Assembly (NCBI GenBank): GCA_036513415.1
Contig: DATBZA010000107.1
Location: forward strand, 37,773-101,772
Source of the DNA: Myxococcales bacterium
Lineage (GTDB): Bacteria; Myxococcota; Myxococcia; Myxococcales; 40CM-4-68-19
Length of the DNA: 64,000 nucleotides
Direction: 5' to 3'
Under the pieces are notes generated by a model that searched no databases, had not been told where the DNA came from, and saw only the letters and a list, made by a program, of their open reading frames with translations. This document shows positions 1,492 to 52,475 of the stretch, in pieces. Position numbers and translations under genes: made by a program. How positions within the stretch are numbered: the stretch's first letter is position 1; each line of letters starts with the position of its first letter.

Positions 1492-3261
1492 ATGCTCAAG
1501 GGGATTGGTGTGTCGGCGGGCGTCGCGCAGGGTACGGCATACGTGGTGGCCGATCGCTTGCAGTCCACGGTTCCGCAGCGAAGGGTCCGGGCGTCCGAAT
1601 TGGACGGCGAGCGCGCGCGCTTCGATGCGGCGGTCGCCCGCGCGGACGCAGAGCTCCTCGCCTTGCAGGAGGAGGTGCGCGAGAACATCGGTCCGACCCA
1701 GGCGGACATCTTCGGCGCGCAGAGGCTGGCACTGGGCGACCCCTTCCTGCGCGAGCAGGTGCTCCGCTCGGCGGCGGAGCAGCGCATCAACGTGGAAGCC
1801 GCCGTGTCGGAAGTCTTCGACGAGTACACCAGAAGCCTGGAGGTCGCGCGGGACGGCCATCTGCGCGCGAGGGCGGCGGATATCCACGACGTACGAAAAC
1901 GATTGCTCTCCGCGCTGGCAGAGCAAGGAGGCCTCGCCGATCCAAGAATCCCCGAGGGGGCGATCGTGGTCTCCGAGGAGCTCTTGCCCTCGGTGACCGC
2001 GCGCCTGGAGCTCGACAACGTGCGGGCGTTCGTGACGGAGAGAGGCAACAGGTTTTCCCACAGCTCGATCCTGGCACGCTCGCTGGGAACGCCGGCGGTC
2101 GCCGGGGTGGCCTCCGCATCGAAGACGATCAAGACCGGCGATCGACTCATCGTCGATGGAGTGGCTGGGATCGTTTTTGTCAACCCGGAAACGTCGATCG
2201 AGCGCGAGTACGATCGCCTGGCGGCAGATCTAAAATCCTCGAAGGAGGAGTTACGCCACCTGGTCGATCTCTCCTCCGTCACGCTCGACGGCACGACGCT
2301 TCCTCTGCTGGCGAACGTGAACAAGTTTTCCGACACCGAAGCCGCGTTGCTCTACAACGCCGACGGGATCGGCCTCTATCGGACGGAGTTCGCCTTCTCC
2401 ATCCGCACCGCCTTTCCGACCGAGGACGAGCAGTACGAGGTCCTCGAGCGCGCGGCGGAGCGGATGCATCCGCGAAAGCTCGTCCTCCGGCTGGTGGATC
2501 TGGGCGGCGACAAGACCCTCACGTACTTCCCGCTTCCTCCCTCCCGGAATCCCTCCCTCGCGGAGCGCGGCATCCGGCTCTTGCTCCGGCACGTCGACGT
2601 GCTGAAGACGCAGCTGCGCGCCTTCCTGCGGGTGAGCGCGCGCCATCCGGTGTCCATCCTGGTCCCTGTGGTGATCGGGGTCGAGGACGTCCGGCAGGTG
2701 CGCGAAGTCGTGCGGCAGGTGCAGGACGAGCTCTCGGCGGAAGGAAAGCGCTTCAATCCCGCCATCCCGATCGGCGCCATGATCGAGGTGCCATCGGCCG
2801 CGCTGATGGCTCGGCCGTTGGCGAAGGAGGCCGACTTCCTCAGCCTCGGGACCAACGACCTCGTACAGTACGTGCTGGCCGCCGACCGCGAGGACGAGAC
2901 CACGGCACCCTACTACCAGCCCTTGCACCCCGCGGTCCTTCGCCTCATCGACTCGGTGGTCGAGGGCGCAAGGAGCGCCGGCAGGGAGCTCGCGATCTGC
3001 GGTGAAATGGCGGGAGACCCGCTGCACACCGCGTTGCTGCTCGGGCTGGGACTGCGCGAGTTCAGCGTGGCGCCGCGCCAGATGCTCGAGGTGAAGGACG
3101 CCATCCGGAGAACGCACCTCGGCGAAGCGCGGCAGCTCGCGCGCATCGCTCTGGAACTCGGATCGGCCGCCGAAGTGGAGGCGCTCTTGAACGAGTACCA
3201 GCCGATGCGCAAGTACGACTCGACCGTGACCTCCGGTTCGACCACTTTGCGCGACTTCTGA
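1492..3261 (+). CDS. ptsI: phosphoenolpyruvate-protein phosphotransferase (PTS enzyme I)
   Basis: N-terminus MLKGIGVSAGVAQG. Phospho-His loop RFSHSSILARSLGTPAV. PEP-utilising C-terminal motifs GTNDLVQY and ICGEMAGDP. Start moved from track ORF start 1348 to ATG 1492. Confidence 0.85.
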   Translation: MLKGIGVSAGVAQGTAYVVADRLQSTVPQRRVRASELDGERARFDAAVARADAELLALQEEVRENIGPTQADIFGAQRLALGDPFLREQVLRSAAEQRINVEAAVSEVFDEYTRSLEVARDGHLRARAADIHDVRKRLLSALAEQGGLADPRIPEGAIVVSEELLPSVTARLELDNVRAFVTERGNRFSHSSILARSLGTPAVAGVASASKTIKTGDRLIVDGVAGIVFVNPETSIEREYDRLAADLKSSKEELRHLVDLSSVTLDGTTLPLLANVNKFSDTEAALLYNADGIGLYRTEFAFSIRTAFPTEDEQYEVLERAAERMHPRKLVLRLVDLGGDKTLTYFPLPPSRNPSLAERGIRLLLRHVDVLKTQLRAFLRVSARHPVSILVPVVIGVEDVRQVREVVRQVQDELSAEGKRFNPAIPIGAMIEVPSAALMARPLAKEADFLSLGTNDLVQYVLAADREDETTAPYYQPLHPAVLRLIDSVVEGARSAGRELAICGEMAGDPLHTALLLGLGLREFSVAPRQMLEVKDAIRRTHLGEARQLARIALELGSAAEVEALLNEYQPMRKYDSTVTSGSTTLRDF

Positions 3262-5214: not shown

Positions 5215-5230
5215 TGGCACGTCGCCTGCA
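5215..5230 (+). promoter_or_regulatory. candidate sigma-54 promoter TGGCACG-N4-CTGCA
   Basis: Perfect -24 TGGCACG, -12 CTGCA, correct spacing, in an intergenic region. The predicted TSS near 5241 leaves an 18-nt leader containing GGAGGA before ATG 5259. Confidence 0.55.
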
Positions 5231-10328: not shown

Positions 10329-11699
10329 TCACTCTGGGATGATCGGGCCGTACTTCTTCAACCGCTCGATGAGCGATCCGCGGCTCAGGCCCAGGCGTCG
10401 CGCGGCCTCCGACTGGTTTCCGCCGACCGCGGTCATCGTCCGGCCGATCAGGCTGCGCTCCACCGCCTCGACGTGGTCGCGGAGACTGAGCTTCCGGTCG
10501 AGCTGTCCCCCCATACCCTCTCCGCCCGTCTGAACGGTGTCCCGGGGGAGCCAGCTCTCGTCCGCCGAGAGCACCTCGGTGTCGGAGACAATCACCCACC
10601 GTTCGATCACGTTCTGTAGCTCTCGAATGTTGCCCGGCCAGGAGTACGTCCGCAGCATCTCCAGGGTCTTCTCATCCACAGCGCGCACCTTCTTCTCCGC
10701 TCGACCCGCATGGAGGCGAATGAAGTGCTCGACCAGCAGGGGGATGTCCTCTCGTCGCTCCCGCAGGGGCGGGACCTCGATGGGAAACACGTTGAGCCGG
10801 TAGAACAGGTCGCTGCGAAAGGTGCCGGCGGCAATCGCAGCCTGCAAGTCACGATTGGTGGCCGCGATCACCCGCACGTCGACCCGGATCGGTTGATTCC
10901 CGCCCACCCGCTCGAATTCGCGCTCTTGCAGGACCCGCAAGAGAGCAATCTGGGTCTCCGCGGGAAGGTCGCCGACCTCGTCCAGGAAGATCGTTCCTCC
11001 TTCCGCCAGCTCGAAACGGCCCCGGCGCTGCTGCAGCGCTCCCGTGAACGCTCCCTTCTCGTGACCGAACAACTCGGAGGCGATCAGCGAGGGCTGGATG
11101 GCGGCACAATTCACGCTGACGAGTGGTCGCGAGGACCGCTGCGACCGGCTGTGGATTGCATGCGCTACCAGCTCCTTCCCCGTCCCCGTCTCTCCCAGGA
11201 TCAGCACCGTCGATTCCGTCGGCGCGACGCTCGCCACCCGATTCAGAACCGTCTTCAACGAGGCGCTGGTGCCCACGACGCTCTCTGGAGCGTGCTTCGC
11301 AGCTTTCTTCCCCCTGTTCGGGACCTGGTAGCGGACGATCGCTTGCCGGATGGCCGCCAGCAGGGCCTCATCGTCGAAAGGCTTGGTGAAGAACTCGAAG
11401 GCTCCGGACTTCATGGCTCGCACGGACATGGGGATGTCCCCGTGACCGGTGAGAAAGATGATGGGAATCTGGAGATCGGCCTTGGCGAGCTCCTGTTGCA
11501 GATCCAGCCCGCTCAGCCCCGGCAGTCTCACATCCAGCACCAGACAGCTCGGCACCTCGTTCCGCGGCCTGACCAGGAAGTCTTGCGCCGACTTGAACGT
11601 CTCCACTCTTAGCCCCGCCGACCGGATCAGACTTGCCACGGACTCGCGCACCGCCACATCGTCATCCACGACGTAGACGGGAGGATATGTCTCGCTCAT
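10329..11699 (-). CDS. sigma-54-dependent response regulator (FixJ-type REC + AAA+ + Fis HTH)
   Basis: REC (VYVVDDD...[13 protein letters not shown]...KPF). Walker A GETGTGKE. GAFTGA loop. ESELFGHEKGAF. R-finger region. C-terminal HTH NQSEAARRLGLSRGSL. SD GAGGAAAGGTGG before ATG 11699. A GTG at 11771 would overlap the upstream stop (GTGA). Confidence 0.9.
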   Translation of the reverse strand: MSETYPPVYVVDDDVAVRESVASLIRSAGLRVETFKSAQDFLVRPRNEVPSCLVLDVRLPGLSGLDLQQELAKADLQIPIIFLTGHGDIPMSVRAMKSGAFEFFTKPFDDEALLAAIRQAIVRYQVPNRGKKAAKHAPESVVGTSASLKTVLNRVASVAPTESTVLILGETGTGKELVAHAIHSRSQRSSRPLVSVNCAAIQPSLIASELFGHEKGAFTGALQQRRGRFELAEGGTIFLDEVGDLPAETQIALLRVLQEREFERVGGNQPIRVDVRVIAATNRDLQAAIAAGTFRSDLFYRLNVFPIEVPPLRERREDIPLLVEHFIRLHAGRAEKKVRAVDEKTLEMLRTYSWPGNIRELQNVIERWVIVSDTEVLSADESWLPRDTVQTGGEGMGGQLDRKLSLRDHVEAVERSLIGRTMTAVGGNQSEAARRLGLSRGSLIERLKKYGPIIPE

Positions 11700-11767
11700 G
11701 GGCCACCTTTCCTCGACCGGAGCGCGGCGATCACCGAGCTCTACCCACTCTCCGATCATCCATCGCA

Positions 11768-12145
11768 TCACATCATTTTCGGACTCAGGGCTGCCTGGAC
11801 CGCACTCAGCAGCGCTTCCTCGCTGAATGGTTTGAGCAAGAAATCCACCGCGCCCCCTCTCAGAGCTCGCGACCGCAGCTGTTCATCTCCATGTGCGGTG
11901 ATGAAGATGACCGGCATCTGCGGATGGCTGGCCACGAGACGGCTCTGCAACTCGAACCCGCTCATTCCGGGCATGCGCACGTCGAGGATCAAGCAGTCTG
12001 TCTCGCGCAGACGATCCGAGCTCAGGAACTCCTCGGCCGAGGCAAACACCACCACTCCGAAGCTGACGGACCTGAGCAAGCCCCCGACGGAGTCGCGCAC
12101 GGAGTTGTCGTCATCGACGATCGAAATGAGAGGAGTGTTCGCCAT
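11768..12145 (-). CDS. single-domain response regulator (FixJ-type REC only)
   Basis: ISIVDDDNSVRDS...LILDVRMPGMSGFEL...KPF. Paralogous to the REC domains of the two neighbouring regulators. Start is ATG 12145 or GTG 12160. Confidence 0.8.
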   Translation of the reverse strand: MANTPLISIVDDDNSVRDSVGGLLRSVSFGVVVFASAEEFLSSDRLRETDCLILDVRMPGMSGFELQSRLVASHPQMPVIFITAHGDEQLRSRALRGGAVDFLLKPFSEEALLSAVQAALSPKMM

Positions 12146-23904: not shown

Positions 23905-24132
23905 TTCCCAGCTACGACTGCAGCAGCAGCTTCACGGGCAAACGAACCCATACTGCTTCGGCTTTCCGGCTTGGCATCAAAACCCCCTTGCTGCTGTTCC
24001 GCAAAAGATGCGGGCGGGTGCCTTGGCGATTCGCCCGCATTCCGGGTATCTGCTTTGGCAGGGTCCTTCTACCCTTGGGCGGCGTCCGCCTTTCTGAGAG
24101 GCGGGAGAGCTAAAATCAGCTTGGAGCACGGT

Positions 24133-30321
<6,189 letters not shown>

Positions 30322-30342: not shown

Positions 30343-30358
30343 TGGCATGACCGTTGCT
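30343..30358 (+). promoter_or_regulatory. candidate sigma-54 promoter TGGCAT-N5-TTGCT
   Basis: Near-consensus -24/-12 match located 22 nt after the stop of the giant EBP gene. My rough base-composition estimate gives about 0.06 chance occurrences of this pattern in the whole window. The C of GC is 18 nt from ATG 30375. Confidence 0.55.
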
Positions 30359-30374: not shown

Positions 30375-30656
30375 ATGTTCAAGATCCGGAGGTCCTCTGC
30401 AGGGCGATGGGTCTTCGTGAGTGGTCGGATCGACGGAGAGGCAGTGTCCGAGTTGCAGCGCCTGTTGGGCCGGGAATCGGCAGGGAGCGGGCTGATTCTG
30501 GATCTCAAGGGAGTTCGACTCGTGGATGCGGAGGCAGTAGAGTTCTTCGCGCGTTGCGAGGACGCGGGGATCAAACTTCGGAGTTGCCCTGCGTACGTCC
30601 GCGAGTGGATCGCCAGCAGTCGGCGTCAAGCCGCACTGATCCCAGCACGGGAATGA
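30375..30656 (+). CDS. small STAS-like (anti-sigma-antagonist fold) protein, hypothetical
   Basis: 93 aa. The pattern ...LILDLKGVRLVDAEAVEFF... resembles the STAS core but lacks the conserved phosphorylatable Ser. No SD. Confidence 0.5.
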   Translation: MFKIRRSSAGRWVFVSGRIDGEAVSELQRLLGRESAGSGLILDLKGVRLVDAEAVEFFARCEDAGIKLRSCPAYVREWIASSRRQAALIPARE

Positions 30657-34074: not shown

Positions 34075-34704
34075 ATGGCTGGACACGACCCGATCCGTGT
34101 TCTCTGCGTCGACGACCACCCTGTGCTTCGAGAGGGGATCGCTGCCCTGGTCGAGAGTCAGCGAGACATGAAGCTCGTGGCCGAGGCGGGGAGCGGACGC
34201 CAGGCCCTTCTCAGCTTTCGCGAGCACCGTCCAGACGTCACCCTGATGGATCTGAGGCTTCCCGACATGAGCGGCATCGATACGTTGGCCGCGATCCGCT
34301 CGGCGTTCCCCGATGCGCGCATCATCATGCTGACGACGTTCGAAGGCGACGTCGAGATCCGGCGCGCCCTCGAGGCGGGCGCGCGAGGGTACATGTTGAA
34401 GAGCATGCCTCCGCAGGACTTGATCGACGGGATCCGGCAAGTGCATGCGGGGAAGAAACGCATTCCGCTTGAGGTCGGGTCCCATCTCGCGGAGCACATG
34501 GGCGAGGAGGACCTGACGGCTCGCGAGGTCGAGGTCCTGCAGCAGATCGCCGGCGGGAACCGGAATCAAGACATCGCGAGTCGACTCTTCATCGCTGAAG
34601 AAACGGTCAAGGTCCACGTCAAGCACGTCATGGAGAAGCTCGGAGCAAGCGACCGCACTGAAGCCGTCTCGATCGCGCTCCGGCGCGGGATCATCCAGCT
34701 TTAG
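34075..34704 (+). CDS. NarL/LuxR family response regulator
   Basis: ATG directly follows the kinase stop. REC (VLCVDDHPVLREG...LMDLRLPDMSG) + LuxR HTH (LTAREVEVLQQIAGGNRNQDIASRLFIAEETVKVH). Confidence 0.9.
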   Translation: MAGHDPIRVLCVDDHPVLREGIAALVESQRDMKLVAEAGSGRQALLSFREHRPDVTLMDLRLPDMSGIDTLAAIRSAFPDARIIMLTTFEGDVEIRRALEAGARGYMLKSMPPQDLIDGIRQVHAGKKRIPLEVGSHLAEHMGEEDLTAREVEVLQQIAGGNRNQDIASRLFIAEETVKVHVKHVMEKLGASDRTEAVSIALRRGIIQL

Positions 34705-34723
34705 CCGCGGCCACTTCAGATCC

Positions 34724-34747
34724 TCAGGGGCTACGTTTGAGCGAGGT
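34724..34747 (+). repeat. copy B of conserved 24-nt element TCAGGGGCTACGTTTGAGCGAGGT
   Basis: 23/24 identical to 8831..8854. It has the same 19-nt offset from a TAG stop (34702-34704). Confidence 0.85.
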
Positions 34748-34835
34748 TCGTCGGGCGTTCGATGGCGATCCGCGCGAATACCACGATCGAGGGACTCGCC
34801 CCGGAGCAGGATTCGCTAGCCTGTGCGCGCCGAAC

Positions 34836-35258
34836 ATGCAGCGGCTATTCTCGACCTTTCCGGATGGGCGCCCCGGCGCAGGATTGCTGCTCTTGCGCGC
34901 GGCCGTTGGCGGCTCGCTCCTGGTCCTCGGCGGAACCTACCTCGTGCACGCGCATCAAGCCGGCGGGTGGAGCCTGGCCATCGGACTGCTGGCCGCCGCG
35001 AGCGGCGCCTCGCTGCTGATCGGATTCCTGACGCCGTTGGGCGTCCTCGCCGGCCTGGTGGCCATCGGCCTCGCCCTGGTGTGGCCGTCACCCGCCACTC
35101 GCGTCCTCCCGAACGGAAAGCTCGCCGCGCTCTTGCTGGGCGTCCTCGCTGCCGCGGTCGCCCTGTTGGGTCCCGGCGCGCTCTCCATCGACGCTCGACT
35201 GTTCGGGCGCCGCGAGATCAGCATTCCCCGCGCCCGGAACGGAGCTCCGGGAGAGTGA
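34836..35258 (+). CDS. DoxX-like small integral membrane protein
   Basis: Four hydrophobic segments. N-terminal LLLLRAAVGGSLLVLG pattern resembling DoxX. Start set to ATG 34836. Confidence 0.5.
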   Translation: MQRLFSTFPDGRPGAGLLLLRAAVGGSLLVLGGTYLVHAHQAGGWSLAIGLLAAASGASLLIGFLTPLGVLAGLVAIGLALVWPSPATRVLPNGKLAALLLGVLAAAVALLGPGALSIDARLFGRREISIPRARNGAPGE

Positions 35259-35432
35259 GACCATCGCGCCCGCCAGCTCGACGACCACGATCCGAAGGCC
35301 TGCGGATACCCCGATCGCGGTAGCCCGAGCTAGGCCGGAGGTGGCAGGAAAAAGGCCTTCCATCTCGTGATGCGGTCGGGTCGAGCGACGTTCTACCTTG
35401 CCGACATGGAGCGAACACCAGGAGAGCATTCC

Positions 35433-36563
35433 ATGAGCATCATCACGATCCGAGACGGCACGCCGGCATCCAATCTCGAGGTCCCGGTTGCCCTCGCCAA
35501 CCTGGATCTCGGGGACGAGATCGATCACGAGATCAACTTCGGCCGGATCGTCGGCAAAAGCCCTGCGCTGCGGCGCGTGCTCAAGCAGATCGAGACGGTG
35601 AGCGGCACGGTCAGCACGGTCATCCTCGAGGGCGAGACCGGGACCGGCAAGGAACTGTTCGCCCAGGCCATCCATGATCTCAGCGGCCGGCGTTCGGGCC
35701 CGTTCGTGAAGCTGAACTGTTCAGCGATTCCCAGCGGTCTTCTGGAAAGCGAGCTCTTCGGGCACGAGAAGGGAGCGTTCACGAGCGCCTCCGCTCAACG
35801 CGTCGGACGTTTCGAGCTGGCGAATGGCGGAACCATCTTCCTCGACGAAGTCGGCGAGCTCTCGCTCGAGCTGCAGCCGAAGCTCCTCCGGGTGCTTCAG
35901 GAAAGGGAATTCGAGCGTCTGGGCGGCGCGCGCACCCTGCGTACCGACATCCGGGTGATCGCGGCGACGAACCGCGACCTGAGAACGATGGTCGAGCGGG
36001 GGATGTTCCGGTCCGATCTCTTCTACCGTCTGAACGTCTTTCCCGTCCGGGTCCCCGCGCTTCGAGACCGGCCGGAGGACATTCCTCTTCTGGTCCGGTC
36101 CTTCGCCGACGAGTTTTCGCGGCGCATGAACAAATCGTTCGAGGCCATTCCCTGCTCGACCATGAGAGAACTGTGCCGGCACCCCTGGCCGGGCAACATC
36201 CGGGAGCTCCGGAACGTCGTTGAGCGCGCGGTCATCCTCTCGTCCGGTCCGGTCCTCGAAATCGACATCGCCGACATGAACGCTCGCAAATCGCCGATGC
36301 GCAGGGCAGACAGCAGGGTCGAGGCGTTCCCGTTGAGAAGACTTCGCGACGAACTGGATGACGCCCAACGCGATGTGATCCTCGGCGCGCTGAGGCAAGC
36401 GGATGGGCGTGTCGGAGGACCCGATGGTGCCGCAGCAAGGCTTGGTCTGAAGCGTACGACACTCATCGGCCGCATGAAGCGGCTCGGTATCGAGTCTCAC
36501 TCGCGAGATGGAAAGTCTTATGGGACCTCTCAACCAGACCTGTCAAAGACGATCGCTTCTTGA
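35433..36563 (+). CDS. sigma-54 enhancer-binding protein without N-terminal sensor domain (PspF/HrpR-like layout), GAFTSA loop variant
   Basis: Only about 45 aa precede the AAA+ core. Walker A GETGTGKE. ESELFGHEKGAFTSA at 35770-35787 (Ser replaces the second Gly of GAFTGA). HTH AAARLGLKRTTLIGRMKRLG. SD GGAGAG before ATG 35433. Confidence 0.85.
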   Translation: MSIITIRDGTPASNLEVPVALANLDLGDEIDHEINFGRIVGKSPALRRVLKQIETVSGTVSTVILEGETGTGKELFAQAIHDLSGRRSGPFVKLNCSAIPSGLLESELFGHEKGAFTSASAQRVGRFELANGGTIFLDEVGELSLELQPKLLRVLQEREFERLGGARTLRTDIRVIAATNRDLRTMVERGMFRSDLFYRLNVFPVRVPALRDRPEDIPLLVRSFADEFSRRMNKSFEAIPCSTMRELCRHPWPGNIRELRNVVERAVILSSGPVLEIDIADMNARKSPMRRADSRVEAFPLRRLRDELDDAQRDVILGALRQADGRVGGPDGAAARLGLKRTTLIGRMKRLGIESHSRDGKSYGTSQPDLSKTIAS

Positions 36564-36691
36564 TCCTGCGCGCGGCGGTACCAAGGTTGTACAGACCTGC
36601 GGGGCCTTGCGTGCTTCAATCCTGGTCCATGACAACCCCCGTGCGCCCGGCAGGTCGGGAGGTGACCGCGGTTTCCTGGATCCGAGTGCAC

Positions 36692-36707
36692 TGGCCGAGC
36701 ACTTGCA
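36692..36707 (+). promoter_or_regulatory. candidate sigma-54 promoter TGGCCG-N5-TTGCA
   Basis: Correct spacing and a perfect -12 TTGCA, in an intergenic region. It lies 129 nt after the sensor-less EBP gene and 15 nt (C of GC to A of ATG) before the first gene of the glycogen/PPP cluster. Confidence 0.5.
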
Positions 36708-36720
36708 ACCCTCGCTGGCC

Positions 36721-37350
36721 ATGAGCGACGCACTTCCTGTCGTTTACCTGGCGAGGCACGGCGAGACCGCCTGGACCATCTCAGGTCAGCACACAGGGGC
36801 GACCGATCTACCGCTGACCGCACAGGGTGAAGCCGAGGCCGTCCGGCTCGCAGAGCCGCTCGCGGGATTGACGTTCGCCGCGGTGTTCACGAGTCCGTTG
36901 CAGCGGGCGGTCCAAACGTGCGAGCTGGCTGGCTTCGGCCCTGTGGCCGAAGTCGAGCCTGACCTCGTCGAATGGAACTACGGCACGTACGAAGGTCGCA
37001 CCAGCGCCGAGATTCGCGCCGAGCGCCCTGGCTGGCAAGTGTTCCGCGATGGTTGCCCGGGAGGGGAGTCGCCAGCGCAGATCGGAGCACGAGCCGACCG
37101 GGTGGTACGCCGGATGCGAGCAATCGAAGGGAACGTCCTGCTCTTTTCGAGCGGGCATATCCTCCGGGTGTTCGCCGCGCGCTGGCTTGGGCTCGAACCG
37201 GGGACGGGCAGGTACTTCCTGCTCGGCACGGCCAGTCTCAGCGCGTTGGGATACGAGCATGATCGCTCCGAGCCGGTTATCCGTCTCTGGGACGAGAGGC
37301 CTCACGAACGGCGCGTCACCAAGGGGCAGGTATCGGGCACCGGGAGGTAG
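36721..37350 (+). CDS. histidine phosphatase superfamily protein (phosphoglycerate-mutase-like)
   Basis: N-terminal catalytic motif VYLARHGETAW. Later LFSSGHILR (second His). Confidence 0.8.
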   Translation: MSDALPVVYLARHGETAWTISGQHTGATDLPLTAQGEAEAVRLAEPLAGLTFAAVFTSPLQRAVQTCELAGFGPVAEVEPDLVEWNYGTYEGRTSAEIRAERPGWQVFRDGCPGGESPAQIGARADRVVRRMRAIEGNVLLFSSGHILRVFAARWLGLEPGTGRYFLLGTASLSALGYEHDRSEPVIRLWDERPHERRVTKGQVSGTGR

Positions 37351-37351
37351 C

Positions 37352-39886
37352 ATGGCGATGAGCGAAAAAAGGGTGGCGGTTCTTCGAGCAGGGGTGCCGG
37401 TTCTTCGAACAGGAGCAGCCTCGGACACCTTGGAGGCGCTGCGCTGGCAATACGGATGCGGTCCGGTGGACCTCACGGGCACCGCCGATGCGCTCTATGA
37501 GCGGCACCTGCTCTTCGACAACGTCGCCGATCCCGCGGCCGCCGGGACGCGTGAGCGCTACGAGGCCCTCGCGCGCTCCGTCCGGGACGTCCTCTCGCAG
37601 CGATGGGTCCGGACGGAGCAGACCTACGAGAGCTTGAACCCCAAGCGCGTCTACTACCTGTCGATGGAGTTCCTGATCGGCCGCTCGCTGTCCAACAACA
37701 TCACGAATCTGCTGCTCAGTCCCTTCCTGAGCGAAGCCGTCAAGCAGAGATCCCTGGATTGGCTTGGCCCGCTCGAAGAGGAACCCGACGCCGCCCTGGG
37801 AAACGGCGGCCTCGGGCGTCTGGCTGCGTGCTTCCTCGATTCGATGGCCACCCTGCAGTTGCCGGCGATGGGGTACGGGCTCCGGTACGAGTACGGAATG
37901 TTCCGGCAATCCATCCAAGACGGTTGGCAACACGAGCAGCCCGACAACTGGCTTCGTCGCCCCGACCCGTGGGAGGTCGCGCGTCCCGACGACAAGGTCG
38001 AGATCGAGCTGAACTGCTCGTTCGAGGTCCGGGGAGGGGCGCTGAGCGCGATCCTGGGAAGGCCATCCAAGCTGATCGGCATTCCGTTCGATCGGCCCGT
38101 GGTGGGCTATGGCGGCAAGACGATCAACACGCTGCGCCTCTGGGCGGCGCGCGCGGGCGATTACTTCGATTTCCAGGCGTTCAGCCATGGCGACTTCGTC
38201 GCCGCGCTGGCCGAAACGCTCGCGGCCGAGTCTCTCACGCGGGTCCTCTATCCCGACGACTCCACCACCCAGGGGCAGGGGCTGCGGTTCGTGCAGGAGT
38301 ACTTTCTCGTCGCCTGCTCACTCGCCGATCTGATCCGGCGATTTCGCCGCACCAACGCGGACTGGGGTGCGCTTCCCGACAAGGCCGCCATCCAGCTCAA
38401 CGATACCCACCCGTCAATCGCCGTTCCCGAGCTGATGCGGCTCCTGCTCGACGAGGCTCACCTCGGATGGGACCAGGCCTGGGACCTCACCCAACGTACG
38501 CTGGCGTATACGAACCACACGCTGCTGCCCGAGGCGCTGGAAAAATGGCCGCTGGCGTGGTTCGAGACGCTGCTCCCTCGCCACCTCGAGATCATCCTCG
38601 AGATCAACCGGCGATTGCTCGATGCGGTCCGGCGCCGCTTTCCCGGCGACGAGGGCCGTGTGGGACGCACGAGCCTGATCGAAGAAGGCCCGAGCAAACA
38701 CGTCCGCATGGCCAACCTCGCCATCGTGGGCTCGCACAGCACCAACGGCGTGGCGGCGATTCACTCCGCGCTGCTGCGCTCGAACACGGTGAGGGACCTG
38801 GCCGAGACGTTTCCCGAGCGTTTCGGCAACAAGACCAATGGCGTCACGCCGCGGCGCTGGCTGCTGCTCTCGAACCCGGCGCTGGCCAGGACCATCACTG
38901 AAAGCATCGGCGAAGACTGGATCGCCGACCTCGGCCAGCTTGCCAGGCTCAAGCCGCTCGCCGACGACTCGAGCTTCCGCGACGCGTTCCGCTCCACCAA
39001 GCGAGCGGCCAAGTCCGCCTTCGCGGAGTGGCTCCGAGCGAGCTCGGGGCAGACGGTGGATCCCGATACCATCTTCGACAGCCAGGTGAAGCGCATCCAC
39101 GAATACAAGCGGCAGCTTCTCAACGCGTTGCGGATCGTCGTGCTCTACAACCGCTTGCGGGAGGACCCGACGCTGCAGACGACGCCGCGGACTTTCCTGT
39201 TCGCCGGCAAGGCGGCGCCGGCGTACCATCTGGCCAAGCTCATCATCAAGCTCCTGAACAACCTCGCCGGGACCATCGACGCCGATCCGTCGGTGCGTGG
39301 GAGGCTCAAGGTGATGTTCCTCCCCGAGTACTCCGTGTCCCTGGCCGAGCGGTTGATTCCAGCCACCGATGTCTCCAACCAGATCTCGACCGCCGGCTAC
39401 GAGGCGAGCGGCACCAGCAACATGAAGTTCATGATGAACGGCGCGCTGACGATCGGCACCCGCGACGGCGCGACGATCGAGATGGCGCAGGAGGCCGGGG
39501 AGGAGAACTTCTTCCTCTTTGGCCTGACGGCGGAGCAGGTTGCCGGCAGCCGCGGCTGGTACAACCCGCGCTGGCACTACGACAACCAGCCGGAGATCCG
39601 CGCGGCGCTGGACCTGATCTTCTCCGATCACTTCAGCCGCAATGAGCCCGGCGTGTTTGCGCCGCTGCGCGACACGCTGCTGACGAGCGACCATTACATG
39701 CACCTCGCGGACCTCGGATCCTATCTCGAGGCCGATCGCAGCCTCTGCGCGCTATACGCAGACCCGGAAGCATGGGCGCGCAAGGCCATCCTGAACGTGG
39801 CCAGCTCCGGGAAGTTCTCCAGCGACCGCACCATTGCCGAGTACGCGGCCGACATCTGGCACGTCAGTCCGTGTCCGGTGCCGTGA
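37352..39886 (+). CDS. glgP: glycogen/maltodextrin phosphorylase
   Basis: [34 protein letters not shown]-lysine region [32 protein letters not shown] before ATG 37352. Confidence 0.95.
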
Positions 39887-39947
39887 AGGAGCCGCGCAGC
39901 GACGACGCCGTCCTGGACAAGGCAAGCTGACAGGAAAGGGGAAACCG

Positions 39948-41591
39948 ATGACGAGAATGCTGCCACTGACCGCGCGTCAATCGTGGAAGGCGCTCCAGAC
40001 CCACCAGGAGAAGATCCGGGAGGTGCACCTCCGCACGCTCTTCGACGACGACCCGACGCGCGGCGAGCGCTTCACCGCGGAGGCGGCCGGAATCCATCTC
40101 GACTACTCCAAGAATCGCGTCACGGACGAGACCCTGGCGCTGCTCCGCCGGCTGGCCGAGGAGTCCGGCCTGCGCGAACGCATCGATGCCATGTTCCGGG
40201 GAGACAAGATCAACCTGACGGAAAACAGATCCGTCCTGCATGTCGCCCTGCGCGCCCCGCGCGGCAAGGCGATCGTCGTGGACGGCAAGGACGTGGTGCC
40301 CGACGTCCACGCCGTGCTCGGCGCGATGACCGACTTCTCCAATCGGGTGCGGAGCGGCGCGTGGAAGGGGCACACCGGCAAGCGCATTCGCAACGTGGTC
40401 AACATCGGCATCGGCGGCTCAGACCTCGGCCCCGTGATGGCCTACGAGGCGCTCAAGCACTACAGCGATCGCGCGATGGCCTTTCGCTTCGTCTCGAACG
40501 TAGATGGGACCGATCTGGTGGAGGCGACCCGCGACCTGGACCCTGCGGAGACGCTCTTCATCGTTTCCTCGAAGACCTTCACCACGCTGGAAACGATGAC
40601 CAACGCCGAGAGCGCGCGCCAGTGGTTGCTCAAGGAGCTCGGCGGAGACGTCAAGGCGGTGTCCAAGCATTTCGTCGCCGTCTCCACCAACGCCAAGAAG
40701 GTCTCGGAGTTCGGCATCGACACCGCGAACATGTTTGGATTCTGGGACTGGGTGGGCGGGCGCTATTCGATGGACTCGGCGATCGGTCTGTCGACGATGC
40801 TCGCCGTCGGTCCCGAGAATTTCCGCGCTCTGCTGGATGGCTTCCACCAGATGGACGAGCACTTCCGCACCGCCCCATTCGAGCGCAACCTGCCGGTGCT
40901 CCTCGGCCTGTTGACGGTGTGGTACGCGGATTTCTTCGACGCCGAGACGGTGGCCGTGCTGCCCTACGAGCAATACCTGAAGCGTTTCCCCGCCTACCTG
41001 CAGCAGCTGGCGATGGAAAGCAACGGCAAGCACGTCACCCGCGAGGGAGACGAGATCAGCTATCCGACCGGGCCCATCTACTGGGGCGAGCCGGGAACAA
41101 ACGGGCAGCACTCGTTCTACCAGCTGATCCATCAAGGCACCCGTCTCATTCCCTGCGACTTCATTGCCTTCTCCGAAACGCTGAATCCGCTCGGCCGCCA
41201 CCACGACATGCTGCTCGCGAACGTGTTCGCGCAGACCGAGGCGCTGGCCTTCGGGAAGACGCGCGAGCAGGTGAAAGCGGAAGGAACGGCGGACAGCCTC
41301 GTTCCCCATCGCGTATTCAAGGGGAACCGCCCGTCGAACACCATCCTCGCCGAGCGGCTGACGCCGGAGACCCTTGGCAAGCTGGTCGCGCTCTACGAGC
41401 ACAGCGTGTTCACCCAGGGCATGATCTGGGACGTCGACTCCTTCGATCAGTGGGGAGTCGAGCTGGGCAAGGTGCTGGCCCAGCGGATCATCCCGGAGCT
41501 CGAGAGCGAGACGGAGCCCGCGCTCCGTCACGACAGCTCGACGAACGCGCTCATCCGGCGCTACCGGACGCGCAAGGGCGCCGTGCGATGA
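39948..41591 (+). CDS. pgi: glucose-6-phosphate isomerase
   Basis: [28 protein letters not shown]..., [17 protein letters not shown] motifs. Confidence 0.95.
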
Positions 41592-42490
41592 CCGGGATGG
41601 CCCAGTTCACGCAGCAGCTGCAGAGGATGAAAACGGATCCCGGGTTCATCGCGGCGCTGGATCAAAGCGGTGGGAGCACGCCCGGCGCGCTGCGCGCTTA
41701 CGGAATCAAGGAAGGCGCGTGGTCCAACGACGAGGAGATGTTCGCGCTCGTGCATCAGATGCGCACGCGCATCATCACCAGCCCGTCCTTCACCGGCGAG
41801 CGGATCCTCGGCGCCATCCTCTTCGAGAACACCATGGACAGGGACATCGAGGGACAGCCGACCGGGGATTACCTGTGGAACGTGAAACGGGTCGTGCCCT
41901 TCCTGAAAGTCGACAAGGGCCTGGCAGCGGAGAAGGACGGTGTCCAGTTGATGAAGCCGATACCCGGGCTCGCCGCGCTGCTCGACAAGGCCAAGACGAA
42001 GCGCATCTTCGGAACCAAGATGCGCTCGTTCGTCAAGCAAGCCAACCGAGCGGGCATCCAAGGCATCGTGACCCAGCAGTTCGAGGCTGCCCGGCAGATC
42101 ACCGCCGCGGGCCTCGTGCCGATCGTCGAGCCGGAAGTGGACATTCACTGTCCAGAAAAGGCCGAGGCCGAGGAGTTGCTCAAAGGGGCCATCCTCGAGA
42201 AGCTCGACGGACTGCCCGAGGGCCAGCTCGTCATGCTGAAGATCACCTTGCCGGAGAAAGACGACTTCTACAGCGAGTTCGTCAGCCATCCCAAGGTGGT
42301 GAGGGTGGTTGCGCTTTCTGGCGGTTACACGCGGGAAGAAGCCAACGAGCGCTTGCGGAGGAACCACGGCGTCGTGGCGAGCTTTTCACGGGCGCTGGTC
42401 GAGGGGTTGTCCGCCCCGCAATCCGACGCAGAGTACGACGCCCGGCTGGATGCAGCCGTTCGGAGCATCTTCGAGGCGTCCAACACTTGA
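41588..42490 (+). CDS. fba: class I fructose-bisphosphate aldolase
   Basis: [29 protein letters not shown] (Schiff-base Lys region). ATG overlaps the pgi stop (ATGA). Confidence 0.85.
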
Positions 42491-42531
42491 AGCGAAGCCG
42501 CCGAGCAATCGGCCTTGAAAAGGAGTGAGCG

Positions 42532-43566
42532 ATGCAACTCGGAATGATCGGACTTGGTCGCATGGGCGCGAACATGGCCCGGCGGCTTCTTGCAGGCGGC
42601 CACCGATGCGTGGTCTTCAGCAGGTCGGCGAACGCGGTCGAGGAGTTGAGTCGGGCCAAGGCGGTCGGCGCCTCGTCTCTGGCCGATCTCGTGAAGAAGC
42701 TGGAGACGCCGCGGGCCATCTGGCTGATGGTCCCGGCGGCAGCCGTGGACGCGACCGTCAGCGACCTTTTGCCCCATCTCGCGCCTGGCGACATCATCAT
42801 CGATGGCGGGAATTCCTATTACGTCGACGACATCCGGCGCGCGAAGGAGCTTGCGGAGAAGGGCATCCACTACGTGGACGTCGGGACCAGCGGCGGAGTC
42901 TGGGGACGGGAGCGCGGGTACTGCCTGATGATCGGCGGCGAGGATGCGGTGGTGAAACACCTCGATCCCATCTTCGCGCAATTGGCGCCCGGCGCCGGCG
43001 ACATCCCCCGCACTCCGGGGCGGGAAGCCATCCGCGGCACGGCCGAGCAGGGATACCTGCACTGCGGACCGAACGGCGCCGGCCATTTCGTCAAGATGGT
43101 GCACAACGGAATCGAGTACGGCGTCATGGCCGCTTACGCCGAGGGACTGGGCATCTTGCGGAACGCCAACGTCGGAAAGCGAGAACACGCGGTCGACGCC
43201 GAGACCACGCCGCTGCGGGCCCCGGAGCGCTACCAGTACGACCTCGACCTTCGCGACATCACCGAGGTCTGGCGGCGCGGCAGCGTCATCGCTTCGTGGC
43301 TGCTCGATCTGACGGCAGCCGCCCTGATCAAGGATCCCGCGCTGTCGGAGTTCTCGGGCCGGGTCTCGGACTCGGGCGAGGGACGGTGGACGATCAACGC
43401 GGCCATCGACGAGGCGGTGCCGGCGCCCGTGCTGTCCGCCGCCCTCTATCAGCGGTTCAGCTCACGCGGCGAGGCGGACTTTCAAGACCGCGTCCTGTCC
43501 GCCCTGCGGTACCAGTTCGGCGGACACCTGGAGAAGCCCGGCGGCAGCGGCGGGAGCTCACGATGA
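42532..43566 (+). CDS. gnd: 6-phosphogluconate dehydrogenase, decarboxylating (short-chain type)
   Basis: [19 protein letters not shown] Rossmann N-terminus. [16 protein letters not shown] signature. AAGGAG SD. Confidence 0.9.
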
Positions 43567-44945
43567 GCGACGCCCGTTCGGATGCCCTGGTGTTCTTCGG
43601 CGCGACGGGCGACCTGGCGTTCAAGAAGATCTTTCCGGCACTGCAGGCGATGGTGAAACGCGGCCATCTCAACGTGCCGATCATCGGCGTGGCGAAGGCG
43701 GGCTGGGGCGTCGACGAGCTCCGCGCCCGCGCGCGCGACAGCGTCAAGCAGCACGGCGGGCTGGATGCCGCGGCGTTCGACAAGCTGTCTCGACTGCTGC
43801 GCTATGTGGACGGCGACTACCGGGACGCGGCGACGTTCCAGGCCATTCGCCAGCAACTCGGTTCCGCTCAGCGCCCCGTCCACTACCTCGCCATCCCGCC
43901 CACGCTGTTCGGGCCGGTCGTGGAACAGCTCAACCGGTCAGGCTGCGCGAAAGGCGCTCGCATCATCGTCGAGAAGCCGTTCGGCGGCGATCTCTCCTCG
44001 GCGCAGGAACTCAACCGCACGCTGCTCGGCTCCTTCGACGAGAGGACGATCTTTCGCATCGACCATTACCTCGGCAAACGGCCGGTGCATCACATGTTGT
44101 TTTTCCGGTTTGCGAACCCGTTCATGGCGCCTTTCTGGAACAGGAATGACGTCGAGAGCGTCCAGATCACGATGGCCGAGGAGTTCGGGATCCAGGGAAG
44201 GGGCGCCTTCTACGACGAGACGGGCACCGTGCGCGATGTGGTGCAGAACCACCTGTTCCAGGTGCTGACCAACCTGGCCATGGAGCCTCCGGTCAGGACC
44301 GACAGCCAATCCATCCGAGACGAGAAGGTGAAAGTCCTCGAGGCGATCCCGGCCCTCGTCCCGGACAACGTCGTGCGCGGACAGTTTCGCGGTTATCGAT
44401 TGGAGAAGGGAGTGGCGGCGGATTCGCAGGTGGAAACGTTCGTCGCCATGCGCCTCCAGATCGACTCCTGGCGCTGGCAGGGCGTGCCCTTCTACATCCG
44501 GGCCGGAAAGTGCCTGCCCGTGACGTGCACGGAGATCGTCATCCGGCTCCGCCGGCCTCCCACGATCTTTCAAGGCTTCCACCTCGACTCGAACTACTGC
44601 CGCTTCCGGATCAGTCCCGACGTTACGCTCGCCCTCGGCGCGAACGTGATCGCGCCGGGACAGGAGACGCGCAGCCAGACCGCGGAAATGGTGGGGACCC
44701 AGCTCCCTGGCGCGGACGAAATGGATGCTTACGAGCGGGTCCTGGGAGACGCGATGGAGGGCGATTCCACGCTGTTCGCGCGGGAGGACTACGTCGAAGA
44801 AGCGTGGCGAATCGTCGATCCGGTGCTGAAGGTCGGCACACCCGTCTACGAATACGAGCCAGGAACCTGGGGACCAAAAGAGGTCGACTCTAAAGTCTCG
44901 CCCCCCGGAGGCTGGCAGAACCCTCCGCTGTCGGGAAGGGCGTAA
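43563..44945 (+). CDS. zwf: glucose-6-phosphate 1-dehydrogenase
   Basis: [46 protein letters not shown] overlaps the gnd stop (ATGA). Confidence 0.95.
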
Positions 44946-44958
44946 GCGGAGCGGACGC

Positions 44959-47055
44959 TTGCAGGACGATGCGAGCAGCAGGGGACGAAGCGCGCCTCTG
45001 GGAGCGACGCCCTGTGACGGCGGCGTCAACTTCAGCGTCTACTCGCGCGGAGCCACCGGCGTGGAGTTGCTGCTCTTCGACCGGGAGAACGATGCACGCG
45101 CGACCCGGGTCATCCCGCTCGACCCCGCGGCGAATCGGACTTACCACTACTGGCACGTCTTCGTGTCGGGCATTCGGCAGGGCCAGATGTACGGGTATCG
45201 CATGCACGGAGCGTGGGACCCCGCGAGCGGGATGCGCTTCGACCCGACCAAGGTGCTCCTCGATCCCTATGGCCGAGGCGTCGTGGTTCCGAAGAGCTAC
45301 AGCCGCGAAGCGGCGTGCGGGGAAACCGACACCGCCGCGTCGGCGATGAGGAGCGTCGTGGCCGACGTTTCCGCGTACGACTGGGAGGGCGATGTCCCGC
45401 TGCAACGGCCGTCGTCGCGGACCATCATCTACGAGATGCACGTGAGAGGGTTCACGTGCCATCCCAGCTCCGGGGTTTCGGAACAAAAGCGGGGGACCTA
45501 CGCCGGCGTGGTCGAGAAGATTCCCTATCTCCAGCAGCTGGGCATCACCGCCGTCGAGTTGCTGCCGGTGTTCCAGTTCGACGCCCAGGATGCTCCGCTC
45601 GGACGGATCAACTACTGGGGATATGCGCCGATCTCGTTCTTTGCGCCGCACCACGCCTACAGCTCCGGTCAGGATCCGCTCGCCCCGATCGACGAGTTCC
45701 GCGACATGGTGAAGGCGCTCCACCGCGCAGGGATCGAGGTCATTCTCGACGTCGTGTTCAACCACACCGCGGAAGGCGACCACCGCGGACCGACGCTGAG
45801 CTTCCGCGGACTGGACAACGCCACATACTACATCCTCGAAGAGGATCACTCACGCTACGCCAATTACAGCGGCACGGGGAATACGCTGAACGCCAATCAT
45901 CCGATCGTGCGCCGGATGATCGTGGACTGCCTCCGGTACTGGGTGGAGACGATGCACGTCGACGGGTTCCGCTTCGACCTCGCGTCGATCCTGGCGCGCG
46001 ATTCGTCGGGCCAGGTGATCCCGAATCCGCCGGTGCTGTGGGACATCGAGTCGGAGCCGGCGCTGGCGGGGACGAAGCTCATCGCTGAAGCATGGGATGC
46101 AGTTGGTCTGTACCAGGTGGGGACCTTCGTCGGGGACAGTTGGAAGGAATGGAACGGACGCTTCCGCGACGACGTCCGCAGCTTCTTCCGCGGCGACGAA
46201 GGCTCCATCGGCGCGTTTGTCGACCGGTTCATCGGCAGCCCGTCGTTGTACGGCCACAAGGAGCGCGAGATCGAGGAAAGCATCAACTTTGTCACGTCTC
46301 ACGATGGCTTCACCCTCAACGATCTCGTCTCCTACGACCGCAAGCACAACGAAGCGAACGGCGAGGACAACCGGGACGGCGCCGACGACAACCGAAGTTG
46401 GAACTGTGGAGTGGAAGGCCCGACGGAAGATCCCGCGGTCGACAAGCTGCGAACGCGACAGGTGAAGAACTTCTTCACCGTGACGATGCTCTCCGGGGGG
46501 ATGCCCATGATGCTCATGGGCGACGAAGTGCGGCGTACGCAGGGCGGCAACAACAACGCCTATTGTCAGGACAACGAGACCAGCTGGTTCGACTGGACCC
46601 TGCTCGCGAAGCGGGCCGACGTGCTCCGGTTCGTGAGCTTGCTCAATGCTCGCCGGGTCTTGCGAGACGTCGAGCACGAGCGGCAGCGGGTAGCCCTGAA
46701 CCAACTGATCCGCCAGGCCGACCTGACCTGGCACGGCGTGAGACTCCACGAACCTGACTGGGGTCACGACTCGCACAGCGTGGCTTTCACGACGAAGTTC
46801 GCGAACGAACCAGGTCTCTTTCACATCATTCTCAATGCGTACTGGGAACCGCTCGAATTCGAGCTGCCGCCGGCCGCCGGCGGCGCCGGACATCCATGGC
46901 ACCGATGGATCGACACCTTTCTCGACTCTCCGCACGATATCGCTGATTGGGAGCGGGCACCCTTGGTTTCCGGCGACAGCTATCGGGCGGAACGCCGGTC
47001 CGTGGTGGTGCTGTTCGCGGGCGTCGAACCGGCTCCTACTGCAACGCCGACGTGA
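44959..47055 (+). CDS. glgX: glycogen debranching enzyme (isoamylase-type)
   Basis: PLGATPCDGGVNFSVYS, YEMHVRGFT, GYAPISFFAP, VILDVVFNHT, DGFRFDLAS, IAEAWD, FVTSHDGFTL. TTG 44959 start is uncertain. Confidence 0.9.
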   Translation: MQDDASSRGRSAPLGATPCDGGVNFSVYSRGATGVELLLFDRENDARATRVIPLDPAANRTYHYWHVFVSGIRQGQMYGYRMHGAWDPASGMRFDPTKVLLDPYGRGVVVPKSYSREAACGETDTAASAMRSVVADVSAYDWEGDVPLQRPSSRTIIYEMHVRGFTCHPSSGVSEQKRGTYAGVVEKIPYLQQLGITAVELLPVFQFDAQDAPLGRINYWGYAPISFFAPHHAYSSGQDPLAPIDEFRDMVKALHRAGIEVILDVVFNHTAEGDHRGPTLSFRGLDNATYYILEEDHSRYANYSGTGNTLNANHPIVRRMIVDCLRYWVETMHVDGFRFDLASILARDSSGQVIPNPPVLWDIESEPALAGTKLIAEAWDAVGLYQVGTFVGDSWKEWNGRFRDDVRSFFRGDEGSIGAFVDRFIGSPSLYGHKEREIEESINFVTSHDGFTLNDLVSYDRKHNEANGEDNRDGADDNRSWNCGVEGPTEDPAVDKLRTRQVKNFFTVTMLSGGMPMMLMGDEVRRTQGGNNNAYCQDNETSWFDWTLLAKRADVLRFVSLLNARRVLRDVEHERQRVALNQLIRQADLTWHGVRLHEPDWGHDSHSVAFTTKFANEPGLFHIILNAYWEPLEFELPPAAGGAGHPWHRWIDTFLDSPHDIADWERAPLVSGDSYRAERRSVVVLFAGVEPAPTATPT

Positions 47056-52459: not shown

Positions 52460-52475
52460 TGGCACGTCCGCTGCA
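52460..52475 (+). promoter_or_regulatory. candidate sigma-54 promoter TGGCACG-N4-CTGCA
   Basis: TGGCACGTCCGCTGCA is nearly identical to TGGCACGTCGCCTGCA at 5215. Intergenic, upstream of the TolC-adaptor-RND operon. Confidence 0.5.

Follow-up and report, generated by a model that had tools for sequence, protein, structure and literature searches.

A candidate sigma-54 promoter and a sensor-less GAFTSA activator at the head of a glycogen-breakdown and pentose-phosphate operon

What reads the glycogen-breakdown and pentose-phosphate genes that lie directly behind a sensor-less sigma-54 activator, and is that activator theirs? The question is raised by a locus within 64,000 nucleotides (nt) of contig DATBZA010000107.1, assigned to a Myxococcales bacterium (the whole stretch is called the window here), in which the gene of a short enhancer-binding protein (EBP) is followed by a candidate -24/-12 promoter, element B, and by seven metabolic genes. 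Here we report that sigma-54 control of the module formed by the leading histidine phosphatase (HisP) and glgP is, from comparison of related loci, well supported as a trait of this bacterial group, that sigma-54 control of the window's own glycogen operon is plausible, and that the adjacent EBP as cognate activator of element B is unproven. The reading we favour, in which element B still fires and the GAF-less, GAFTSA-bearing EBP beside it is its activator, has in our judgement a little less than an even chance of being right.

The features on which the argument turns are the following.

35433..36563, forward strand: sensor-less bacterial EBP of 376 amino acids (aa), with a 38-aa tail, an AAA+ sigma-54 interaction domain, a lid and a Fis-type helix-turn-helix (HTH)
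35772..35789, forward strand: GAFTSA loop (L1, the sigma-54 contact), read in translation
36692..36707, forward strand: element B, TGGCCG-N5-TTGCA (TGGCCGAGCACTTGCA), candidate sigma-54 promoter of the operon
36721..37350, forward strand: histidine phosphatase HisP (branch 1), PF00300, E=1.4e-46
37352..39886, forward strand: GlgP, glycogen or alpha-glucan phosphorylase, TIGR02093, 1058 bits (cut-off 553)
39948..41591, forward strand: Pgi, glucose-6-phosphate isomerase (PGI), NF001211, 862 bits (cut-off 492)
41588..42490, forward strand: Fba, class I fructose-bisphosphate aldolase (PRK05377 type), NF003784, 484 bits (cut-off 392)
42532..43566, forward strand: Gnd, short-chain 6-phosphogluconate dehydrogenase, NF007161 and TIGR00872, both above cut-off
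43563..44945, forward strand: Zwf, glucose-6-phosphate dehydrogenase, TIGR00871, 461 bits (cut-off 401)
44959..47055, forward strand: GlgX, glycogen debranching enzyme, TIGR02100, 720 bits (cut-off 641)

Open reading frames (ORFs), Pfam and NCBIfam place the EBP and all seven genes where an initial annotation, made from the DNA alone, had put them, and its description of the seven as co-directional and tightly packed or overlapping agrees with intergenic distances of 1, 61, -4, 41, -4 and 13 nt, 61 nt at most. GlgP, Pgi, Fba, Gnd, Zwf and GlgX all score above curated NCBIfam cut-offs; the cofactor of Gnd is ambiguous, because the protein passes both the NADP-type model (NF007161) and the NAD-type model (TIGR00872). 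Phosphoglucomutase and 6-phosphogluconolactonase are absent from the cluster, as that annotation had remarked. For the mutase this is particular to the window's version of the operon, since related loci hold phosphoglucomutase, MalQ and transaldolase inside the module.

Element B was likewise found where it had been described: TGGCCGAGCACTTGCA starts at the 129th nt past the EBP stop codon. Its GG and GC stand at the canonical 10-nt separation, and it agrees with TGGCAC-N5-TTGCW at nine of the 11 specified positions with exact spacing. Between the C of its GC and the HisP ATG at 36721 lie 14 nt, so that transcription starting about 12 nt past the GC would leave a leader of about 3 nt with no Shine-Dalgarno sequence. 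HisP has no such sequence, and the glgP start at 37352 lies behind GGGAGG.

The case for a sigma-54 promoter at this place comes mainly from relatives. Of the PGI homologues at 89-91% identity, those with names are mostly assigned to Candidatus Rokuibacteriota or Rokubacteria, and a Rokuibacteriota metagenome-assembled genome (MAG) supplies a HisP homologue at 82% identity. The source of the window, a soil bacterium, is probably of Candidatus Rokuibacteriota. A HisP-anchored scan of metagenome contigs yielded 80 loci, most of which have HisP next to glgP, an adjacency widespread in Rokuibacteriota-like contigs. On the coding strand, within 160 nt upstream of HisP, YGGCAY-N5-KTGC occurs in 11 of 51 distinct upstream types, and two further types match it at nine of 10 positions; since only 0.8% of random 160-nt segments from the same loci carry the motif, sites before HisP are about 27-fold enriched. 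In three of these loci (L113, L119 and L145) the promoter (CGGCACGGCCGGTGCA, TGGCATGTCTGCTGCA) stands 13-14 nt before the HisP ATG, as it does in the window, and a MAFFT alignment brings element B into register with their CGGCAC-N5-GTGCA at the GGC and TGCA columns. The alignment makes element B the counterpart, by position, of good sigma-54 promoters, although its -24 half is weaker.

Other relatives add a possible activator site. In four upstream types, one of them from a named Rokuibacteriota MAG, the promoter CGGCAYSSCGATTGCY is preceded at a distance of about 130 nt by a palindrome, CTGCYAGTCGRCTGGCAG. It occurs about 230-250 nt upstream of HisP in L099-L105, L133/134, L143, L171-173 and L178-180, and is a perfect palindrome in L171-173. 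The pair has the classic layout of enhancer and promoter, which makes CTGCYAGTCGRCTGGCAG a candidate enhancer for some EBP. The module itself is variable outside the window-like sub-group: it is found as phosphoketolase-HisP-glgP (L162), HisP-glgP-phosphoglucomutase-MalQ (L103), HisP-MalQ...fba...glgX (L119) and HisP-glgP-phosphoglucomutase-transaldolase-PGI (L178). Two loci, L110 and L121, have sensor-less EBPs near HisP; these belong to another subfamily, with a GAFTGA loop, and we take their position to be coincidence. Scanning a genome collection with the window's EBP gave 80 loci, all of them paralogues at 66% identity or less, and the cluster lay near none.

Could element B nevertheless be a chance match, and its neighbouring EBP an accident of rearrangement, with no sigma-54 link of the glycogen operon here at all? 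The motif is short, matches at nine of 11 positions are common in a window of 65% G+C (range 64-69%), one of the three TGGC-N7-TTGCW matches in the window falls within the ptsI coding region, and conservation of element B is indistinguishable from background. Against this, element B is intergenic and exactly spaced, it is positionally homologous to the strong sites of other lineages, such sites show the enrichment upstream of HisP given above, and its motif class is itself enriched in the window, the three matches comparing with 0.49 expected and being reached in none of 100 shuffles. We consider chance very improbable.

A more serious difficulty lies in the interval between the EBP gene and HisP, which carries two further features; the leader that precedes the EBP gene is listed with them.

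36580..36600, forward strand: element A, ACCAAGGTTGTACAGACCTGC, 21 nt, 5' signature of GAFTSA-type EBP genes
36629..36724, forward strand: 31-codon upstream ORF (uORF), apparent remnant of the opening codons of a GAF-EBP gene
35363..35432, forward strand: EBP leader/promoter region, non-coding, conserved, with an AGGAG Shine-Dalgarno sequence 9 nt before the ATG

Element A begins 17 nt past the EBP stop and is present once in the window against 0.01 expected; in 1.9 Mb of fetched loci it occurs, at zero or one mismatch, only next to EBPs of this clade. In the sister lineages L093, L174, L175 and L176/177 it lies 27-30 nt before the EBP ATG, L093 and L174 having a receiver gene followed by a sensor-less EBP and L175 a GAF-EBP. 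In the window, element A is followed after 28 nt by ATGACAACCCCC, which opens the uORF. The uORF starts with MTTPVRPAGREV, which corresponds to MTNPMRAAGRQV at the N-terminus of the GAF-EBP P0015 (tblastn E=2e-5, and by DNA alignment); the uORF stop overlaps the HisP start as ATGA, and substitutions in the uORF relative to L085 are mostly non-synonymous. Together the EBP gene, element A and the uORF look like a fragment that began midway through one GAF-EBP copy and extended into the 5' end of the copy after it.

Synonymous distances divide the EBP-linked loci into clade I, with three sublineages, and clade II, with four. Element B is present in clade I (the window, L084-87/96 and L089) and unchanged there at the specified positions. 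In L081, L092 and L094 of clade II, element A is followed by ...TGCATGGCCTTGCGTGCAAAGCTCGG..ATG, with the GG altered and the spacing wrong, and the unit of A, 28 nt and ATG sits directly on the HisP start, spaced as it is before EBP genes; this is the arrangement to be expected if an ancestor like the window had lost about 92 nt between two TGC repeats. In L090 the interval between EBP and HisP is only 12 nt. No strong internal -24/-12 site was found within the cluster in loci without element B. It follows from the loss of B and the lack of another strong site that the operon can be expressed, and the EBP retained, without B. The earlier proposal that the glycogen and pentose-phosphate cluster may be a sigma-54 regulon gains from the recurrence of promoters before the HisP-glgP of relatives and suffers from the loss of element B in clade II.

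These losses are a ground for regarding element B as a decaying relic. The operon would then be read mainly from the A module by a non-sigma-54 polymerase, or by read-through from the EBP gene, and the EBP would act on other sigma-54 promoters elsewhere in the genome; GAFTSA-type EBP genes would have the A module as their own promoter, and the gene fragment would have brought it along, while HisP in the window would be translated by termination and reinitiation at its ATGA overlap with the uORF. The fixed unit of A, 27-30 nt and ATG before EBP genes in four other lineages fits this account, as do the abutment of that unit on the HisP ATG in clade II, where the deletion would have joined A to HisP and removed the -24 half of B, the 12-nt interval of L090, the lack of any other strong -24/-12 site inside the cluster in any locus, and a HisP gene with no Shine-Dalgarno sequence whose ATG overlaps a preceding stop. 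On the other hand, element A has no recognisable sigma-70 hexamers and its promoter role is only inferred; L089 has lost element A and kept element B; the uORF peptide is not conserved; and the sigma-54 promoters of relatives point to an ancestral sigma-54 dependence of the operon. We regard the relic account as rather unlikely, and the likeliest of the competing explanations.

The placement of the A unit on the HisP start in clade II suggests a compact promoter giving a leaderless message, and the CAAG-N10-CYTG dyad of element A fits an HTH dimer; element A could be the native promoter of the EBP family, a putative binding site of the family, or both. A transcript from A would translate the uORF, and the ATGA overlap would then provide a second route to HisP translation. 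Element A has no Rfam match and no consistent GG-N10-GC: as a sigma-54 promoter it was rejected, because outside the window, L093 and L176 no GG-N10-GC falls in register, and the conserved bases take the spacer position. Neither sigma-70 hexamers nor intrinsic terminators were found in 34600-37400, and Rfam matched nothing anywhere in the window at its gathering threshold, nor, with E allowed to reach 5, in 35200-36900.

The favoured reading, an active element B driven by the adjacent EBP, must also accommodate several other observations that weigh against it. Element B agrees with the consensus at only nine of 11 positions, its -24 half reading TGGCCG where related loci have GGCAY. In clade II it has lost its GG and spacing (L081, L092 and L094) or is deleted (L090), with the EBP intact there. 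Its conservation in clade I is no greater than background, because the members are too closely related. No enhancer for the EBP was identified: inverted repeats upstream of element B are not convincing, the palindrome CTGCYAGTCGRCTGGCAG of relatives is absent from the window, and element A, which carries its dyad about 100 nt before B, acts as a 5' signature of EBP genes and offers another possible route of operon expression. The EBP accompanies HisP-glgP only in the window-like sub-group, most loci being without it, and its ratio of non-synonymous to synonymous substitution rates (dN/dS, 0.22-0.44) exceeds that of the enzymes (0.10-0.26). Finally, neither rpoN nor a transcription start site is visible in the data, no rpoN having been noticed in that part of the window's ORFs which was scanned.

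The EBP itself carries the full set of AAA+/sigma-54 motifs. PF00158 (Sigma54_activat) is matched at full length (E=2.5e-70) from residue 39, and the translation shows a Walker A motif (GETGTGKE), a Walker B motif (DEVGE) and an arginine-finger region. The Pfam match to HTH_8 is faint; the segment AAARLGLKRTTLIGRMKRLGI is near-identical in paralogues, and PF02954 is present in the orthologues P0004-P0009. With 38 aa before the core and an upstream stop that allows at most 22 aa more, the protein has no N-terminal sensory domain, in accordance with the initial annotation, whose estimate of about 45 aa before the AAA+ core was right as to a short tail and too long by the Pfam domain start. All seven orthologue types are exactly 1131 nt long, with neither stops nor indels, and across these seven lineages the dN/dS of the EBP, 0.22-0.44 (against 0.17-0.26 for HisP, 0.10-0.15 for GlgP and Pgi, and 0.17-0.38 for the neighbouring kinase and regulator), indicates that it is under purifying selection and no dead fragment.

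Its leader is kept in all seven orthologue types, including L090 with its different upstream genes. The conserved AGGAG supports the ATG at 35433, and the leader is taken as non-coding because the L081 version is out of frame and meets a stop codon. It holds no GG-N10-GC conserved among orthologues, and no covariation among them that would back an RNA structure; TGGCAG-N5-AGGCC, considered as a sigma-54 promoter for the EBP gene, is not conserved, since L092 has lost the GC and L081 the GG. Upstream of the leader, after a DoxX-like ORF, a hairpin at 35340-35362 (loop AGGAAAAAG, no T tail) shows compensatory changes among orthologues: GGTAGG/CCTACC, GGTAGC/GCTACC and GGC/GCC.

A partner gating the EBP had been suggested by analogy with other sensor-less activators, and the orthologous loci lend no support to a neighbouring one: no partner gene is conserved beside the EBP. 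Next to it lie a DoxX-like membrane ORF that falls in no Pfam or NCBIfam family and a pair made up of a kinase and a LuxR-type regulator; L090 and L092 keep none of these, and no cognate negative regulator was found beside the EBP. In L090, genes for resistance-nodulation-division (RND) efflux replace the kinase/regulator block, and the adjacency of EBP and HisP is still kept. The cargo behind that pair varies, from all seven genes in L081 to HisP-glgP-pgi-gnd-glgX in L085 and HisP-pgi-glgX in L090.

The contact loop may explain how such a protein could work on its own. The loop GHEKGAFTSA is coded at 35760-35789, so that GAFTSA in place of GAFTGA, an unusual call, can be read directly. Among the 120 best EBP homologues, 23 have GAFTSA and 97 GAFTGA; the GAFTSA set consists of orthologues (84-100% identity, 374-392 aa) and a sister group (69-78% identity) that includes GAF-bearing proteins of 500-570 aa. 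The survey of loop variants that the initial annotation had proposed thus identifies GAFTSA as a conserved natural variant of a clade. Among the 150 best representatives of 50%-identity clusters, counted by regular expression, 139 have GAFTGA (four more, after a GNEK lead-in, were missed by the pattern), five GAFTDA, three GAFTSA and three GSFTGA, with GAYTGA, GSFSGA, GSFTDA and GTFTGA once each. A literature search for 'GAFTSA' gave no match.

Saturation mutagenesis of the second glycine of this loop in NorR, G266, left activity only with D, N, Q, S, C and M (PMC2941729). The D and N variants are fully constitutive, and S, Q, C and M are active without signal yet partly under GAF control; G266S activates sigma-54 transcription in vivo (PMC2941729). 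The natural substitutions at this glycine (S and D) therefore lie within the functional set of NorR. The loop is better taken as a sign of sigma-54 activity whose coupling to a sensor domain is altered than as one of lost function. Five EBP representatives (P0252, P0256, P0265, P0269 and P0290) carry GAFTDA, the counterpart of the fully constitutive G266D, and each of the five shows two matched stretches. Together with the GAFTSA clade, these proteins are natural counterparts of NorR G266 variants that escape sensor-domain repression, and they offer a ready test of the regulatory use of the sigma-54 contact loop.

Where did a GAF-less EBP come from? From residue 19-27 onward, the EBP shares 73% identity with the GAF-bearing P0018 and 78% with P0014, and the HTH, GAAARLGLKRTTLI(G/A)RMK, is almost unchanged between them. 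With GAF-bearing EBPs as its nearest relatives, its missing sensor points to a recent truncation: by these alignments, the EBP is a GAF-less derivative of a GAF-bearing protein, with the 5' relic of a second copy downstream. The locus thus illustrates a route to a sensor-less EBP by fragment duplication.

The same kinship allows a different function, in which the EBP mainly modulates its GAF-bearing paralogues, through mixed hexamers or competition for DNA sites, as a constitutive or dominant subunit reminiscent of the co-dependence of HrpR and HrpS or of truncated anti-activators. Its identity to P0018 and P0014 over AAA+ and HTH, the shared loop, its origin as a fragment of such a gene and its retention in clade II without element B are consistent with this, as is the sensor-less relative that stands behind a stand-alone receiver in a sigma-54-driven operon of ferritin and an extracytoplasmic-function (ECF) sigma factor (L093, L174). 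No GAF paralogue, however, was seen in the window or on orthologous contigs, and the tight, repeated linkage to HisP argues for a local role; we hold a main role of this kind to be decidedly unlikely. In those two loci, TGGCACGCCCYGTGCT (L093 3344, L174 4184) precedes the operon of ferritin, ECF sigma factor, stand-alone receiver and sensor-less GAFTSA EBP, an inverted repeat ACCTGT...GACAGGT lies about 75 nt upstream of it, and the receiver may be a detached regulatory domain.

Returning to the favoured reading, we suggest that the operon would be read by sigma-54 RNA polymerase from element B into an almost leaderless mRNA, element B being a local, weakened descendant of the sigma-54 promoter that heads HisP-glgP in many Rokuibacteriota-like lineages, and that the adjacent EBP would supply the ATP-driven opening step. 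Glycogen would be broken down by GlgP and GlgX, hexose phosphate sent through the oxidative pentose-phosphate steps by Zwf and Gnd, and fructose and triose phosphate returned to glucose-6-phosphate by Pgi and the aldolase, with phosphoglucomutase and the lactonase encoded elsewhere. Having no GAF sensor, and having the serine that in NorR G266S partly escapes GAF repression, the EBP is probably active whenever it is made, which would place control in its own expression or with an unlinked partner. It would have arisen as the GAF-EBP fragment described above, placed at the position of an older enhancer.

That last step can be put more boldly as a swap of activator and enhancer, the fragment having inserted where an ancestral, sigma-54-dependent glycogen operon had its enhancer. 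One step would then have given a sensor-less, constitutively competent GAFTSA activator together with a binding site, A, about 100 nt upstream of the promoter, and the transcripts would be almost leaderless, a feature common to several sigma-54 promoters of the group and unusual for sigma-54. We think so specific a history unlikely.

If the favoured reading holds, glycogen use and the supply of reducing power in uncultured Rokuibacteriota would be tied to an enhancer-dependent on/off switch, and the locus would offer sigma-54 promoters giving near-leaderless mRNAs. Our literature search turned up no account in which sigma-54 governs the degradation of an internal carbon store, and nothing relevant on sigma-54 with glycogen or Rokubacteria.

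The leading gene deserves separate comment. HisP falls below every NCBIfam equivalog cut-off (best NF009993, 154 bits against 226) and so is not placed with characterised histidine phosphatases such as the Rv3214-type acid phosphatase, CobC, GpmB or yeast YKR043C. Among solved structures it is nearest to 2a6p (M. tuberculosis Rv3214, E=1e-35) and 3f3k (yeast YKR043C, E=4e-26). YKR043C is Shb17, a sedoheptulose/fructose bisphosphatase. A sugar-bisphosphatase role, an inference only, would complete a cyclic oxidative pentose-phosphate pathway with Pgi, Fba, Zwf and Gnd; a role on glucose-1-phosphate, maltose-1-phosphate or phosphoglucan is at least as likely, since the constant partner of HisP is glgP and not fba. 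As lead gene paired with glgP, HisP presents itself as an uncharacterised partner of glycogen degradation. Among close homologues of the PGI, many (P0409, P0431, P0445 and others) are about 776 aa long, some with an added ROK-family domain (PF00480), and look like glucokinase-PGI fusions in the same bacterial group.

Sigma-54 seems to be in use elsewhere in the window, where one further promoter stands out.

30343..30358, forward strand: second sigma-54 promoter, TGGCATGACCGTTGCT, CTGGCAYG-N4-TTGCT

This site, about 6 kb upstream of the cluster, is kept as CTGGCAYG-N4-TTGCT in every orthologous locus with variable flanks, and 17 nt separate its GC from an ATG at 30375. It indicates that the organism uses sigma-54 and that a very short leader is nothing unusual in it. 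The window has as many as three EBP genes, which suggest heavy use of sigma-54 within these 64 kb and, with the fully conserved -24/-12 site, point to the presence of rpoN in the genome. One of these genes encodes a 2116-aa fusion (23971-30321) of Ser/Thr kinase, AAA_16/TPR, GAF, PAS and a sigma-54 EBP with GAFTGA; it is followed by the promoter at 30343, a 93-aa STAS-like ORF (to 30656), a Y_Y_Y/HisKA_3 kinase and a LuxR-type regulator, a series that could form a cascade upstream of the sensor-less EBP. The third EBP (receiver, AAA+, HTH_8) lies at 10329-11882 on the reverse strand, and the gene for enzyme I of the phosphotransferase system (PTS) at 1492-3261, with the TGGC-N7-TTGCW match at 1547 inside its coding region. 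Good -24/-12 matches also occur at 5215-5230 (TGGCACGTCGCCTGCA), before a lipoprotein-like ORF, and at 52460-52475 (TGGCACGTCCGCTGCA), before genes for an outer-membrane efflux protein and AcrB.

Known systems resemble parts of this arrangement. PspF of Escherichia coli likewise consists only of the AAA+ sigma-54 domain and a C-terminal HTH behind a short N-terminal tail, and PspF chains match the window's EBP at E about 1e-60 in a structure search; unlike PspF, the latter has no PspA-like negative regulator nearby, carries GAFTSA, has GAF-bearing closest relatives and is proposed to act on a metabolic target instead of an envelope-stress operon. FhlA gives the best partial NCBIfam match, covering only its C-terminal two thirds, and the GAF domains of the EBP's paralogues recall activators of the NorR/FhlA type; in contrast to NorR G266S, serine is the wild-type state of a whole clade here, and there is no GAF domain to repress the protein. 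HrpR and HrpS of Pseudomonas syringae are also sensor-less paralogous EBPs derived from duplication, and natural loop variation is reported in them, whereas the window has one intact copy and the 5' relic of a second, and nothing in it points to co-dependence or to an HrpV-like partner. In Firmicutes, sigma-54 and a dedicated EBP of the LevR type, whose gene is often adjacent, control carbohydrate catabolic operons; those EBPs have PRD and EII-like sensor domains and govern PTS uptake, while the EBP of the window is sensor-less and the substrate would be internal glycogen. The enterobacterial glgBXCAP operon, finally, shares glgP and glgX with the cluster described here, but is sigma-70 dependent, mixes synthesis with degradation and has neither pentose-phosphate genes nor a histidine phosphatase.

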